A DNA stretch of 32,789 nt from Porpidia crustulata (lineage: Eukaryota), in NCBI GenBank assembly GCA_964255105.1, contig CAXUWE010000012.1, forward strand, positions 1 to 32,789, in the 5' to 3' direction. A program made the position numbers and the translations under genes. The notes beneath the pieces were generated by a model, which did no database searches, was not told where the DNA came from, and was given only the letters and a program-made list of their open reading frames with translations. Positions 7,014 through 14,541 of this stretch are shown piece after piece; positions within the stretch are counted from its first letter, which is position 1; every line of letters begins with the position of its first letter.

Positions 7014-10000
7014 TCATCCCTTCTTAGATCCATTATCCTTGACCACCGGCACCCCTGGCAATTCGACTCCCTCAACCATCCATACCATCCCCAAATATGC
7101 GTCACTAACTACCAGTATATTTGCCTTCCTCGCCGTCTTTTCTGGCAAAATTTTCACTGTCGTCTTTGAACTTACCTTCCCGTGTCTTGCATTATTATCC
7201 CTCTGAGGCCAACTGACCCGCTTCAGCGCCAGAATCTCATCAACAGCCACGGCTGCGACAATGAGGAAGTAGCCTTCAGATTGCGGCTTTGGAAACCTAG
7301 GGGCGTATATGCGATAGTCGGGTTGAGTGGACGGGTTGAGGCGCGAAATGGTGACGGTTAAGCCGAGAGCATTGACTTCTGTGACGTGGAGTTCGACGTT
7401 GGGTAGTATGTCAGCAGCTTTGTGAGCCTGATCAAGAAGCTTTTGGGGAACGGAGACGGCGTTGAAAAGAGCACTTAGGGCAGCTTTGGAGAGGCACGGG
7501 AGCTCGGCCATAGAGTGTGGACGTGACTTCTCGATCTCAATACGATGGCGTTCTTTTTCAAGATTCACGCCTGGAAGGATAGAGAGCGGTCCATCGCCAG
7601 GCCAGCGAGCGGATTTGATGCATTGGAGGAGTGTCATCATCATGGTGCAGCTTGATAAATAGCCTAATTCCGTCAATACGTCGATGGATGCTTGAATGAT
7701 ACGGATACTCTGATCAAGTACTGAATTCTGATCCCCCACATAATCCGAGATAGGCAGATCAATGCGCGACATGTACGCTTGAAGAAGCAAGAAAGCCTTG
7801 ACGTGAGGATCCCACATGGGGAGGCCAAGTGTATCGGCAGAAAGGGGAAGATTCTGAGAGAGCTCAGCGTTGATAAGATCTTCATTATGGCGGACAGGTA
7901 ATTCGTCAAATTCAGTGGCGGAGCACATCCAGGATAGGGCGTCTTGAAAAGTTGCGTTGCGCTTTGCATGCTTGATCAAGTGACGGATAGTTTTGTGAGA
8001 TAAATAGTAGTAGGACATGACCTTGCCAAGTGGCGTGGAGTCAACCTCGCCATTCGAGTGGAGCTCGATACAGTGAGACTCCGCAAGCTGGCCAAGAGCA
8101 TTGTCTACCATTTCGATCATATATTCGTTGGCAAGTTGTTGCGCGGCCAGCGTATTGTGTTCTTCAGCCAATATTTCAAGACCATAGTAGGATGGATTCT
8201 TGTGCAATCGTCGGAAAAAGAACGTCCATGTCAAGTAGTCTAGAGCATCTTGTTTGGTACCGATGGTTCCTGCGGAAACCTCAGCGCCAAGATGATTATC
8301 CAGTACGTTATGTAGAGAGGACTCGACCGGGAAGCCGGTATGTAGGAAGTGCTTGTAAAAGGCTTTCTTGGCATCCTGCGTGAAGATGCGGGCAATTCCG
8401 GAAGTATCGAATTGAGGACGTCCAGCTCTACCGAGCATTTGCAGTACGTCTGTTAGGTCCATGTCCTTATAACCTTCAATCTTGGCATCGAAATACTGAG
8501 TGCCTTTGACTATCACTAGATGTGCGGGTAAATTGACCCCCCACGCAAGCGTACTTGTAGCAACAAGAACTTGGATCTGATTATTCGCAAACAATTCTTC
8601 TGCTAGCTGTCTGTCGGCCTCTACCAGGCCAGCGTGATGCAGTCCGATGCCGAAGCTCAATGCCTCCCGTAGGGCCTCGTCCTTGACTCGGGAAAGGTGG
8701 AGCTGAAGCTCATCTTCTGACATTCGTACAAAATGACGAGGGTTATCTTCCATTCCGCAAAAGTTGATCAGGTCTTTTGCCGTCAGGCGGGTCTGTCTAC
8801 GTGAAGCGACGAAAACAATCACAGGCTTGTCTGGCGAATGTGTTTGGATTGCCCGGAAGGCTGGACGATTCATTGATTGCATGAGCGGGCAGAACCCTCG
8901 CTGCTCTGGGAAGCCGTCGATAAAAATTTCCAGAGGGACCGGACGGACAGAATGGCGGAAGTTGAAAAGACCTTCCTTCACTCCGAGCCAATTACCAAGG
9001 TCCATTGCATTAGCACATGCAGTAGACATTCCGACCAATCGCACAGACCCCTTCGACTCAGAAGCAATGTAGTTCATCCTGGATACAATGATCTCTAAGA
9101 TAGGCCCGCGGTCACCTCCAAGAAGATGGATCTCGTCAATGATTACTAAACTGACTTGACGCACATAGCCCCGTGTCTGCCAGCTACGACTGATACCGTC
9201 CCACTTCTCGGGCGTAGTGATAATGATATCAGCATTCCTAATCGTGCGAGTATCTGGAGTGTTGTCGCCCGTTAGCTCTACCAATTTGAGCCTCATTTGC
9301 TGAGTGAGGCGTTTTCGCCAATCCTGAACTCGCTCCCGCACAAGAGCTTTCATTGGAGCGATATAAACAACCTTTGAGCCAGGCTTTTCACGGAAAGCCC
9401 ACCACATTGCTAGCTCAGCTGCTACCGTCTTACCGCTACCTGTCGGCGAACCCAGCAACACATTAGCTGAGGTGTGATAAAGAGTGTGGAAGATCTGAGT
9501 CTGCATCGGGTTGAAGAATCGAAATCGTTTCCCATAAAGTTCCTCAAGCAAGGGGTTCTTTAAGGCAGTTATCGGGAGTGGCTGAAGGTCAAGTAGATCC
9601 GTGTAGACACTCTCGGTATCTGGTCTAATCAAGTGCTGGAACGAGACCGGTGTCACTGTCTCAGCGCCTAACCATCTGTCTGAGATTGCTCTGACATAGA
9701 TCTGTGTTGGAAGAGGGTCAGATAATGGAATCGTAAAGTTCAATTCGTGATCATCGTAGAGCTTTCTTCGCGAGAGAATAAAATACTCATGATGGTAGAT
9801 CTCTGAGGTCTCGGAATTTTCAACCCAGATCCAATACGACTCCGAGGTTCCGTTGTGCCTATCGTTCCAGCGGAAGTCAGCAGTGAGATAAAGATGAACT
9901 CGTAGGACGTCACGATTCAGCGGAGCAATTTCGACTTCCACACTCAGTGTTGGAAAATTATCGAGCAGCTTCGAGATCGTGTGTCCCATACCGTTGTTAT

Positions 10001-12992
10001 GGACTAGCTGACCGATCTCTGCTGGCTCCATATCTCGGAGTGATTCGATAGAAGAAACAGCTGCTTTGTCGTCAAGATTCCTTAGAATAGGCTGTGGAAG
10101 CTCGAACTGGTGAAAAGGATGTTGGAATGGCCATACCTGCTTCTCGATCGACTTGCAAAGAGAAAGCAATACTAAGCACTGATGTCCCCATCTTCGATTC
10201 AAAGCTATCATGAAAAGTGCTCGACAAATCCTTGCTGCATTTTGCGCAACATACGCAGAATCAGATACTAACGCGAAGTCTTCTAGGCGTGCTCGAGAAA
10301 TGTAGGACTGCAGAAGTATGTTTGTCTTGGCATGGGCGACATCGTTACCCCCTTCGACTTCGCACCGCACGGAGTCCTCGCGAAGCTTCGAGAGCTCCTT
10401 GGATTCATTATCGCGAGACTGGATATTGTCGAACTCTCCACTCATACTGATCATTTTCAGCACATCAGCTTCGGTGGCCATTGGACGCATCATCATATTG
10501 AAAATTTCGATACTATTTTGCAATACGTAATATTGACTTGCAATTCGGCCAATATCCTTCGCTTTCAATTCTCCGGTGCTTTCAATGAAGATGATCATCT
10601 GGCTCCTCTGCAGGACCCGGGCAGCGTCAACAACTAGCTTCGTTCTTCTTTGCCCCAAGTGAGGATCGTCGCGGATCTCCGCCCAATCGATACCGTAAGT
10701 AAGTGGATTCCGCTGCATACGCACGAACAGGTAAGAATAGCCAAGCCATCGTACAGCATCATCAATCGAGGTGACAGTGCCCAGAGCAATCTCTGCATTC
10801 AGATTATCCACCAGCTTTCTCGAAAACTTTGATTCAATAGGCTGCTGTTGAGTTACGGCAGACAGATAGTGATCAAGCTTATCATGTGTGGTACAGATGA
10901 ACCCAATACCGGTAGCTTGAAACTGTGGTCGACCTGCCCGTCCAAATATCTGTAGGACATCTAAAATGCCAAGATCCACAAATTTACCTTCCTGAGAGCT
11001 GTAAAGCTGTGTCCCTTTAATCACGACGGCTGCGGCCGGGAGATTAACACCCCAAGCAAGTGTTGCTGTACAGCACAGAACGTTGATGTGACCCTCAGCA
11101 AAAAGTGCCTCAACCCTGTTGCGATCTGATCTTTGCATTCCGGCATGATGAGTCCCGAACCCTTTTGGCACCAGCTCTCTTAGTTCCTTTCCCCTCGTGT
11201 TTTTTAGGTCTCGGATTGCATTCCCATACCCCTCTATTTGCTGGCAATCAAAAAGGTCAGAGCAGCCTTGCTCGGTGGCCATTTGGATGAAGGTACGCGC
11301 CGTATTGACAGTGTCCTTTCGAGAATGAACAAATACCATAACTTGATGCCCTTGCTCTAGCATTTCTTTCACTTTCAAAAATGAAACCTGGTCAATGTTA
11401 TCACGGGATGCCTTGGTTCCCGCTTTGCCTTTTACGCCAATGAAATGCTGCTCGAGAGGGACAGGGCGAAAGGATGCGTCAAAGTAGAAAAGCCCCGCCA
11501 TGCGATTTACTTTGAGAAAATCGGCGACGTCAACGTAATTGGGCAAAGTGGCGGAAAGTCCAATAATCCTGATCAGGGATTGGCTGCTCTCAACTTGCCT
11601 CTGTGTTCGAGCGACAAGAGACTCAATAACGGCACCACGCTCATCATGTAACATGTGAACTTCGTCAATGATGAGCAAGCGGACCTTTTGCACAAGTTCA
11701 GTGTCTCCAGTGCTCTTGCGAGTGACAACATCCCATTTCTCTGGGGTCGTCACAATGATCTGAGTTTGAATAATTTCCTTTTTTGTTAGATGCATATCAC
11801 CAGTGAACTCGCGGACCTGTATCCCTAGCCATGCAAGCCGTTTCCCAAGCTTCGCGGTGATCTCTGCCGCAAGGGCTTTCATTGGCGCGACATAGATTAT
11901 CTTGAAGTCCTCCGAATTAATAGTAAAGTCATTGGCAATGGGGTTTTCCGATGGATTTGGCGTAAGATTTTGGCCAATTGCATGTATTATGGCCAGCATG
12001 GCGGCGTCGGTTTTACCAGCACCAGTAGGAGCACATATCAACATGTTCTCATTTGTCTTGTACGCGACTGGATATACAAGGCTTTGCATCCGGTTCAACG
12101 ACTTGTAACCTTTGAACGTTCTCTTACAGATTTCGTCCATCTCAGAGAGCTCGACGAGCTTTCTCTCTAGATCCAGCGTACCAACTTTTGCGGCTGGGAT
12201 GGAATATTCTTGGTATTTCTCATGTTCAAATCTCTGGCTACCTAGTGGCAAACCATACTTTCTACCCTTTACATCAAGAGTATTGCCATTAGCGTTAGCT
12301 TTATATACATGCGGATACTGAGAATCGTCGCGATTGAGTGTAGGTCCTAGAGCTGCAGTCTTATGCTCGAGGTCTTGATGCCGGAGAGCTAACTTGCGCT
12401 CCTGCTTTGTCTGTAGTCGATCTAGAACGTTGATGCTAGATAGCTCATCATGTGCTTCCAACGCGAGGATTTCATTTCGATTCTCGATCAATTCTATGAC
12501 CAGATCTAAATCATCGTACCCTATGATATTCGCAAGAGACATCTGTAATTCATCTTCTGGCGAAACGGTTAGTCCTTACCCATACTATGAATCTTCGAGA
12601 GTACCTTGAATATCCGATACTAGTAGAGCCAATAGTTGTTCATGTAATTCCCTCGCGTCAAGCCCCGACTTTTGACTTGTGAAAGCGACACATTTGCTTT
12701 GGAGCCAACCCTCATCGTGCTTACCACCAGCAGTTTTTTCTTCAGGCATAGGACTATCCTCTGGAGTCGCTGAGTCACTGCTGCATGCGAGCTCTCCTTC
12801 GTCACTGAACACGGCCCAGATATCATCCTTGTCACTATCACCAGTGAGATCATCGTCCTCGACCAACAGGTCATGGCCATATTCCTGTACCGCACCATTG
12901 GGCTGATTTAGATTGAGGTTCGCGATTGCTTCCCGCATTGATGCCAGCTGAGCTAGCCATGTGGCCTCAAAGGTATCTATTGTTGAAGACAT
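7014..12992 (-). CDS. SLH1: Ski2-like tandem-cassette helicase Slh1/Rqt2 (ASCC3/Mug81 ortholog; ribosome quality-control trigger), ~1976 aa; exons 12992-12605, 12556-7014
   Basis: Two DExH helicase cassettes (APTGAGKT/DEVH/GRAGRPQF and SPTGSGKT/DEIH/GRAGRPQFD), each followed by a Sec63-like region. The N-terminus has the YPHVY motif and lacks the Brr2-type N-terminus. A 48-nt intron at 12557-12604 (GTAC..CTAAC..CAG) fuses the 159-aa and 1842-aa ORFs. Confidence 0.93.
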
Positions 12993-13281
12993 ATTAAGTC
13001 TCAGCACATACGCGCACTGGAAACAGAAATACCACAGTACAGCGATGGCTGTTGCAAGATTCAAGTTACATGCTTGTAGGTTTTTAACATTGAATTAATG
13101 AGTCGAGCGAGTCGACTGATCTATGTTACAATCAATGGCGAACAACAACTTACGTGCCACCTACTACCCACCCACCTAACCCGTGCGGTGACTTTTCGGA
13201 GTCAGTACAAATGTCCATACACCAATAGCGTGATGTCCAAACGCCCCTCCCGCAACCTTAATGCATGACTGTATGAATACC

Positions 13282-13525
13282 CACGCGGGTCAAAAATAAA
13301 GTGGGACCGCAAAACCGAATTCCCATTTAAATCATTAGATATATCACTGTATTCTTGAACATAGCAACATGAGACTGAGCTTTAATTATTGTGATGCATT
13401 TACTAGCGTTAAGCTTAAAGAACAATTGAATAATTTGAGCGAATGACTTCAGAAATGCAGTAGTAAATTTGATGATTCAAATGAGAGATCGATTTTACGG
13501 TCCCGCTTTATTTTTGACCCGCGTG
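13282..13525. mobile_element. Non-autonomous DNA transposon (MITE), 244 bp, ~78-bp imperfect TIRs, 5-bp TSD ATACC; Transib-like end signature
   Basis: The left end CACGCGGGTCAAAAATAAAGTGGGACCGCAAAA (13282-13314) matches the reverse complement of the right end (13493-13525) at 31/33 positions, the first 20 perfectly. Ungapped similarity extends to 63/78. ATACC flanks both ends directly (13277-13281 and 13526-13530). The AT-rich 88-bp core has no ORF. Confidence 0.92.
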
Positions 13526-13718
13526 ATACCGTAATCTATCTATAAGATAACGTGTCTGCGTACTAGCGCCCGCACCTAGGATCAAATCTATCTGCGGTGT
13601 TTCCAGGCGAGCTGGCACCCAGATTACGTTCATTGTTCTTGCACGTTTCTCAAGGCCGACTACTCTTGGTATCAAGCTCGAGAATATTTAAATCATCCTT
13701 GTCTTCTACATCTCAATC

Positions 13719-14541
13719 ATGAAACTGTATTACATTGGAGTGGGTACCGTGAGCGGTCGATCTTCCAGAAGTGGATGTGCTGACGTCTCCGATAGATACT
13801 AAAGAACGAGGAAAAGCCTGCGCATGAGCTATGCGTGGAGAAAGATCTTAGCAGCTATTCAAGATTTACGAGAGACAAGTAAGCCCCCAATACTGGAGAT
13901 GCTAGACTTCATTGCTGACAGCAATATCCGCGCTTCAGCTACGGTCAGTTTATGACCTTGTTCAGCAAAACCGTCGCCGAGAGAACAAAACCCGGCCAAC
14001 GGCAGGATGTGGAAGAGAAATGTACTCCCTCTTACATGTGTGAGCTGAGTTCATACTGACTCCCAGATATAGCTTATACTTTCCACGCCTACGGCCGCAC
14101 TGAAGGTGTTGCCGGCATTATTATCTCAGATCCCGACTACCCAGCCCTTGTTGCTCATCAGCTTCTCTCCAAAGTTATGGACGAGTTCCTGAACAAGTAT
14201 CCACGGACGGCTTTCGCTAACAGTACTCCTGCCCTCGCATTTCCGCAGTTGAAGGAATATATAGTCAAGTATCAGGATCCGCAGCAGGCGGATAGTATCA
14301 TGAAGATCCAAAAGGAGCTGGATGAGACCAAAATTGTGTTGCACAAGACGATTGAGAGTGTCTTAGAAAGGGGGGAGAAGATCGATAGCTTGGTGGAGAA
14401 GAGCGACGGACTGAGTGCGCAAAGTAAGATGTTTTATAAGCAGGTAAGATGCCTTCACCCCTCTTGGTTTGGACTATCCACTGATAAAAAAATCTTTGAT
14501 CATAGGCAAAGCAACAAAATTCTTGCTGTATATTAATGTGA
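13719..14541 (+). CDS. YKT6: R-SNARE Ykt6 (longin + SNARE motif + CCAAX), ~197 aa; exons 13719-13739, 13796-13878, 13939-14021, 14073-14443, 14506-14541
   Basis: Spliced translation MKLYYIGILKN...DLSSYSRFTR...KTVAERTKPGQRQDVEE...[70 protein letters not shown]. Exon sum is 594 nt. Confidence 0.97.

Follow-up and report, generated by a model that had tools for sequence, protein, structure and literature searches.

Structure and Genomic Context of the Element

The window, meaning the whole 32,789-nt stretch of Porpidia crustulata DNA analyzed here (contig C12), holds a short inverted-repeat element flanked by two genes. A Ski2-like Sec63/Brl helicase gene (SLH1-like, a name given in the first-pass annotation) lies on the minus strand at 7014–12992 with Pfam matches to Sec63, DEAD and Helicase_C, and a longin and synaptobrevin SNARE gene (YKT6-like) lies on the plus strand at 13719–14536 with matches to Longin and Synaptobrevin. 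Their likely start codons, at 12992 and at the ATG at 13719, are 290 bp and 194 bp from the element, respectively; both genes are outside it, and as they diverge on either side, the element sits between divergent genes. A 19-bp tandem repeat is also seen at the contig start (11–116).

The element is a 244-bp MITE at 13282–13525, with no strand assigned, which starts CACGCGGG and ends CCCGCGTG. Its left TIR (13282–13359, plus strand) is composed of a CACGCGG terminus, an A-rich tract and an inner motif common to transposase-bearing elements, and its right TIR (13448–13525) is in minus orientation. The 78-nt arms are 81% identical (63/78 ungapped), being perfect over 20 bp and matching at 31/33 positions in the outer part. 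ATACC flanks the element on both sides: the left copy at 13277–13281 is read from the sequence and from the 5-bp duplication seen family-wide, and the right copy lies at 13526–13530, like the left on the plus strand, where the GTA next to it agrees with the N-T-A half of the family's target motif. The length, the TIR figures and the ATACC repeat given in the first-pass annotation were all reproduced from the sequence; the terminus CACGCGG agrees at 4/7 positions with the RSS heptamer CACAGTG as quoted there.

The core has no coding capacity now, as its longest stop-free frame is 49 codons, and to this extent its earlier description as non-coding holds; it is, however, the decayed 5′ end of a transposase gene, with 13369–13445 (plus strand) aligning as a frameshifted and broken remnant of the first ~26 codons, from the ATG. 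Taken together, the DNA search, the TIRs, the profile and the core alignment point to a fungal Tc1-like (DD37E/DD38E) transposon from which the element arose by internal deletion. Elsewhere in the window the family TIR profile has no match. A search of sequencing runs returned no orthologous empty site, the locus being present in 1 run that is probably the source's own. The insertion is old, with no shown effect on its neighbouring genes.

A MITE Family with 5-bp Target-Site Duplications

Searches of the organism's own genome were made in the 22.9-Mb assembly of 2,447 contigs. With the window element as query, a DNA search returned 17 matches on 13 contigs at 67–85% identity, the self match excluded, and the terminal pattern was found at 70 sites as opposed to 9 with a reversed control. 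The first 31 two-ended copies, picked and paired by terminal motif alone, range from 45 to 323 bp, with 24/31 falling at 227–264 bp. A flanking 5-bp repeat is exact in 18/31 copies and has at most one mismatch in 26/31, where about 0.04 exact 5-mers would be expected by chance; in the same copies exact repeats number 0/31 at 4 bp or at 6–10 bp, 1/31 at 2 bp and 1/31 at 3 bp, and TA flanks both ends in 0/31. Six later pattern matches comprised four two-ended copies (two exact, two with one mismatch) and two without a second end, bringing the duplication to 20/35 exact and 30/35 with at most one mismatch. That the element is a MITE whose CAC termini and 5-bp duplication are genuine, as proposed in the first-pass annotation, is borne out, and the table of copy number and flanks suggested there shows a multi-copy group. 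The ends carry a terminal C in 61/62, A in 60/62 and C in 59/62 cases, on a set of ends that were selected on the CAC motif, and an A-tract occupies TIR positions 11–19.

The 18 exact sites also reveal a target preference. The duplicated pentamers average 62% GC vs 43% in the flanks, which corrects the earlier remark, made from the single ATACC, that the duplication is not especially GC-rich. A palindromic preference, TAN-[CCWGG]-NTA, was shown statistically from these sites: TA occurs at −3/−2 of the pentamer in 18/36 half-sites vs a background of ~6% (p 3e-13), and the pentamer's centre base is A/T in 15/18. Divergence between copies is high, with the closest pair at 95% and a median of 60% over 406 pairs, and the window copy is at most 76% identical to any other. 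The window MITE belongs to an old multi-copy group, whose members are short, non-coding, bounded by TIRs and duplications, and uniform in size.

Some individual copies are of interest in their own right. Two tiny members with exact duplications, G000:C1841:3153–3197 (L085; 45 bp, CCTAC) and C56:4257–4337 (L063; 81 bp, TCTGA), suggest the minimal ends needed for transposition. Copies at L050 near 2260 (G000:C1720) and at L058 near 280 (G000:C667) are interrupted by repeat-like sequences starting TACACACCTCTAGTTCGG and ACGGTACACCCCC, respectively, which are probably nested insertions of other small elements.

Transposase-Bearing Relatives

Inward of single TIR ends, over distances of up to 10 kb, the 7 + 10 loci with ORFs listed gave host genes only and no long element. 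A metagenome scan with the terminal pattern gave 71 loci, of which two, L142 and L155, are two-ended; for the other 69 a second end could not be made out convincingly, and they were counted as chance matches. L155 is a MITE of 254 bp whose ACAGA repeats lie within TAA...TTA. L142:10001–11330 is a 1,330-bp, RIP-type AT-rich element on an ascomycete-like contig of another organism, with CACGCG ends, 72-nt TIRs at 90% identity and GTAAG on both sides. Its interior is filled by a single minus-strand frame (read with X at stops) that looked Tc1-like by eye. Pfam found 0 families in the six RIP-mutated frames, and a homologue search with the minus-strand frame returned 0/888 candidates; the frame was later confirmed by tblastn and by a family HMM built from 54 homologues, which it matches at E 7e-63 with the other five frames at background. 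The element interrupts one arm of an inverted repeat whose other arm has a single GTAAG and nearly the same downstream bases. This partner arm is an empty site, a paralogous (41-nt arms, 83%) and not an orthologous one. Beside the element lie a long RIP-type AT-rich block (L142:1–8000) and nested inverted repeats (9245–10000).

In the organism's own genome, a DDE_3 search found 7 loci, of which G000:C312 alone matched the L142 frame (31%, E 7e-36). The C312 element (L185:920–~2187) is about 1,270 bp, has the left end CACGTGGGG and contains a single 357-aa ORF (P0002), located 107 bp inside the left end, with Pfam matches to DDE_3 and HTH_Tnp_Tc3_2. Its inner TIRs match the MITE-end profile at E 2.8e-5 and 2.9e-4; the outer right end is decayed, the element lacks a duplication, and Ser stands in place of the second catalytic Asp. 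An intermediate of ~0.5 kb, G000:C1386, retains the start and the end of the ORF together with the right end CCCGCGTG; one of its ends is decayed, and it too lacks a duplication. The TIR profile matched 4/14 loci tested (C312, C1386, L142 and L155) and 0 of the 10 others, with no match at the own-genome homologues C81, C1347, C2311 and C2384.

All ORFs found between CACGCGG-type TIRs are Tc1-like, and domain and profile searches of the long TIR-bounded copies identified a Tc1/mariner-type transposase, not Transib/RAG1. The first-pass annotation had taken the MITE for the non-autonomous partner of a Transib-like or otherwise unclassified transposase elsewhere in the genome. The first half of this stands, as the element is a non-autonomous relative of a transposase elsewhere in the genome; the Transib/RAG-like family assignment is lost, since the partner ORFs carry DDE_3 and HTH_Tnp_Tc3_2, and a mariner-type partner was among the outcomes that the annotation itself had named as counting against it. 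Intact ends together with the 5-bp duplication occur in one transposase-bearing copy only, the RIP-mutated L142 element of another organism. The family looks inactive in the Porpidia crustulata genome: in the best copy there, the right end is decayed and Ser replaces the second catalytic Asp.

G000:C1347 (L190) has the N-terminal half of the same transposase type in a longer frame without TIRs, and P0269, from Hymenoscyphus, is a 1,116-aa fusion with a phospholipase-D-like domain, the sole longer form found. Domestication or gene-model fusion are both possible for these two.

Descent of the MITE Core

In the core of the window element, 13369–13445 aligns with the C312 ORF from its ATG to about codon 26. 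Against the first 90 nt of the ORF the core scores 35.5, a score reached by 1/2000 dinucleotide shuffles, and of the 22 windows compared along the ORF none scores better than its start. Against the 5′ end of C1386 the score is reached by 4/2000 shuffles, and against the 3′ end of the ORF by 86/2000. A similar pattern is seen in the family: for MITE cores above 200 bp, 16/29 outscore every one of 200 shuffles when aligned to the ORF's first 90 nt, and 3/29 do so with its last 90 nt. The 13/29 cores without a clear match to the start of the C312 ORF are probably sister subfamilies. On these alignments, the window core is what remains, in decayed form, of the first ~26 codons of a Tc1-like transposase.

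The Transposase Clade

Among 1,158 candidates, 135 homologues of P0002 were found at E≤1e-10, named examples being from Pyrenophora, Clathrospora, Rutstroemia, Ophiobolus, Orbilia, Curvularia, Parathielavia, Byssothecium, Zopfia and Aulographum, and a transposase profile matched 485 representatives at E≤1e-30. Viral contigs gave 14 pattern matches, 0 of them two-ended, and no transposase relative, and prokaryote genomes gave one distant match to the transposase at 23%. In motif matches to 121 proteins, catalytic spacing is DD37E in 33/70 and DD38E in 22/70, and in 60 homologues the catalytic residues hardly vary. A profile of 60 sequences searched against PDB sequences has 5 matches at E≤1, all to Sleeping Beauty or Mos1 (SB100X at 1.3e-18), and a model of P0004 (pLDDT 83.6) has Mos1, SB and SETMAR at fold-match ranks 1–15; RAG1 and Transib are absent from the fold matches listed for this model and from the PDB sequence matches of the profile. 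Two CxxC pairs, at 125/128 and 188/191, are conserved in the clade (each Cys in 54–58/60) and have no counterpart in the aligned SB sequence; both precede the second D, and 37–38 residues separate D and E.

The motif HAG.[KR]K, a translation of the TIR, lies upstream of transposase sequence in 4/266 homologues, making 3 independent cases, as compared to 0.25 expected, an optimistic expectation given that the pattern was chosen after two of the matches had been seen. In a quick tree of 105 rows, which left out proteins without the full catalytic region, all six TIR-linked rows are inside one 54-row clade (SH-aLRT 96), where they sit on separate branches; the placement of L142, a long branch of odd composition, is uncertain. 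In the predicted proteins P0012 and P0015, a different Tc1-like transposase runs directly into the TIR translation and an ORF of the 54-row-clade type, one Tc1-like element having inserted into another.

Several other elements are present in the genome. G000:C180, C363, C879, C1571 and C2331 are also Tc1-like but bear other TIRs. An open frame of 343 aa is present in C180, and C180 and C363, at 21–25% identity, fall far outside the 54-row clade in the quick tree. As C180 and C363 appear TA-flanked, TA and 5-bp lineages appear to coexist in the genome. At L194:2626–2857 (G000:C122) lies an unrelated element of 232 bp whose 29-bp TIRs (CGGTGTCGGC...) are perfect; it is located at the end of another decayed Tc1-like element and has a possible 6-bp duplication with one mismatch (AGCCAC/AGTCAC). 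A frame at L055:1648–2124 (G000:C1112) resembles by eye the Cys-rich C-terminus of a piggyBac-type transposase, with no match in Pfam.

Comparison with Known Systems

The clade is closest to the Tc1 family (SB100X, PDB 5cr4; Mos1, PDB 3hot/4u7b/5hoo), with which it shares a single ~360-aa transposase of HTH and DDE_3 domains in a ~1.3-kb TIR element, and which provides its best sequence match (E 1.3e-18) as well as its best fold matches. Unlike that family, clade elements have a variable GC-centred 5-bp duplication, CACGCG ends, DD37E/DD38E spacing and the two CxxC pairs not present in the aligned SB sequence. The norm for IS630-Tc1-mariner (ITm) elements, in the available text of PMC5630946, is 1.3–2.4 kb with one ~340-aa ORF between TIRs. 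The sizes of 1,330 bp (L142) and about 1,270 bp with a 357-aa ORF (C312) agree with this, as does a protein of HTH and DDE_3 domains with a Mos1/SB fold. The rule of TA duplication, as given in the portions available of PMC5630946, PMC7325037 and PMC8533490, does not hold here, with 0/31 copies TA-flanked and GTAAG at L142. As the enzyme is of ITm type but the TA rule fails, the family is classed as a variant and not a canonical member of Tc1/mariner; the best description is that of a fungal, Tc1-like lineage whose 5-bp duplications vary.

Mimp MITEs belong to the impala group, and impala and mimp duplicate TA. The present lineage resembles impala/mimp in being fungal and Tc1-like, in DD37E spacing and in producing MITEs; the impala group is Tc1 group 9 and is listed as DD37E in the text available of PMC7325037. 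Three clade motifs were not found in the searchable text of supplements to PMC7325037. ITm enzymes are able to change duplication length, as seen in Fot and Fot-like elements (TAA, TAAA; PMC7386202) and in Sailor DD82E (TATA; PMC8533490), both as described in partial text. These, however, keep fixed TA-containing words of 3–4 bp, where the duplication here is 5 bp, variable and 62% GC. Zator duplicates TWA and Tc4 TNA, and the Repbase entry MarinerL-1_AO from Aspergillus oryzae has a longer non-TA duplication.

Other candidates from the literature provided no match. The PdMLE1 lead yielded no sequence or duplication data, and the table examined for Epichloe MITEs has no 5-bp class. Paracoccidioides Trem elements were rejected because their duplications, in the text available, are TA or undefined, and Sordaria Smini 5-bp repeats because the accessible account holds them to be solo LTRs. 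A full-text literature search, mainly of papers open without subscription and extending to neither Repbase nor Dfam, found no fungal Tc1-like family with a 5-bp duplication in the text available; sources covered in part also include PMC12730594, PMC4592977, PMC5751038, 10.1101/108332, PMC3227409, PMC2836289, PMC11544213, PMC2817418, PMC2851567.

Alternative Explanations

The MITE was very probably moved by an enzyme of the IS630-Tc1-mariner type, Tc1-like with an HTH domain and DD37E/DD38E spacing, and three other accounts can be weighed against this. Mobilization by a Transib/RAG1-like or other CMCT-clade transposase, the view taken in the first-pass annotation, draws on real likenesses. CAC ends, a 5-bp duplication and a GC-rich palindromic target (cCASTGg in Transib) are all shared with Transib in the available portion of PMC1131882; CMCT elements have CA..TG ends and duplications of 2–5 bp (PMC12730594, seen in part), Neurospora has the CMC-type element Sly1-1 (accessible text of PMC4592977), and the assembly, at 2,447 contigs, is fragmented. 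Against this, the ORFs between the TIRs are all Tc1-like and the MITE core itself derives from such an ORF; the clade enzyme is of an unrelated type and half the size, with no RAG1-like match by sequence or fold, while Transib elements are 3–4 kb with enzymes of ~700 aa (PMC1131882, same portion), and no RAG1-core-like transposase in an element of that kind was found. Fungi are listed without Transib in the part available of a genome survey (PMC5751038). Pfam models for RAG1 (PF12940), CACTA (PF02992) and DUF6589 (PF20231) had no match in the genome, a weak negative as control genomes gave no match either, and CMC/CACTA elements, including Sly1-1, are further set apart by the clade's mere 37–38 residues from D to E, its CxxC pairs before the second D and the lack of a PF02992 match. 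The survey without fungal Transib is reported to have covered 1,730 genomes. The Transib/RAG reading is very improbable and already largely refuted, and the Transib likeness is best read as convergence.

A different account would assign the TIRs to another superfamily with 5-bp duplications, such as hAT5, leaving the Tc1-like ORF as captured cargo and placing the cutting enzyme elsewhere. The lack of the second catalytic Asp in the C312 ORF would suit a passenger; the near invariance of the catalytic residues over 60 homologues would not, and the Tc1-like ORF fills the whole interior in two organisms, with TIR read-through in 3 more independent homologues. The separate branches occupied by TIR-linked proteins in the 54-row clade fit long co-inheritance rather than one capture. 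No hAT-like ORF was seen between TIRs in the loci examined by reading. This account is very improbable. An ordinary TA-duplicating Tc1 element with mis-called ends, its 5-bp repeats being of other origin, is extremely improbable: TA is indeed enriched near the ends, at −3/−2 from the duplicated pentamer, but it is found in half of the half-sites only and outside the duplication, and it adjoins both ends in none of the 31 copies. The pentamers vary between sites and are direct repeats, not inverted, and the L142 empty site has its pentamer once.

Proposed Mechanism

With a Tc1-like enzyme as the preferred assignment, the MITE is very probably old and non-autonomous, having arisen by deletion from a cut-and-paste transposon of compact size (~1.3 kb) with one ~360-aa transposase. 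As the alignment shows, the MITE retained the two TIRs along with the gene's first ~26 codons, and it was presumably moved in trans by the Tc1-like enzyme. From established DDE chemistry, a transposase dimer would bind the TIRs via its HTH domains, excise the element and join its 3′ ends to target strands 5 nt apart, not 2. The preferred target is the palindromic site described above, and gap repair would then yield the duplication of a variable GC-centred pentamer that is seen at the insertion sites.

The clade-specific CxxC pairs fall in the linker and clamp-loop regions, which in Mos1 keep the two catalytic domains aligned. A zinc site at this position could speculatively widen the stagger, and it is a speculative and rather doubtful proposal that the pairs bind zinc and re-space the two active sites.

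Implications

At roughly even odds, the findings describe an undescribed and widespread Pezizomycotina lineage of Tc1-like DD37E/DD38E transposons which abandoned TA duplication for a 5-nt stagger at TAN-CCWGG-NTA and converged on the Transib/RAG signature, with CxxC pairs that may set the geometry. TA duplication is taken as the defining mark of the most widely distributed DNA-transposon group, and the known exceptions in the literature available still duplicate fixed words that contain TA. A Tc1-like enzyme that naturally makes a variable GC-centred 5-bp duplication would allow a direct comparison with Mos1 and Sleeping Beauty on what determines stagger length and target choice, and could be of use in gene delivery, where its insertion profile would differ. 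The family also exposes a classification trap, as CAC ends with a 5-bp duplication do not imply Transib in fungi. If the proposal is true, this lineage would supply the enzyme so far lacking for many fungal MITEs that have 5-bp duplications and are unclassified.
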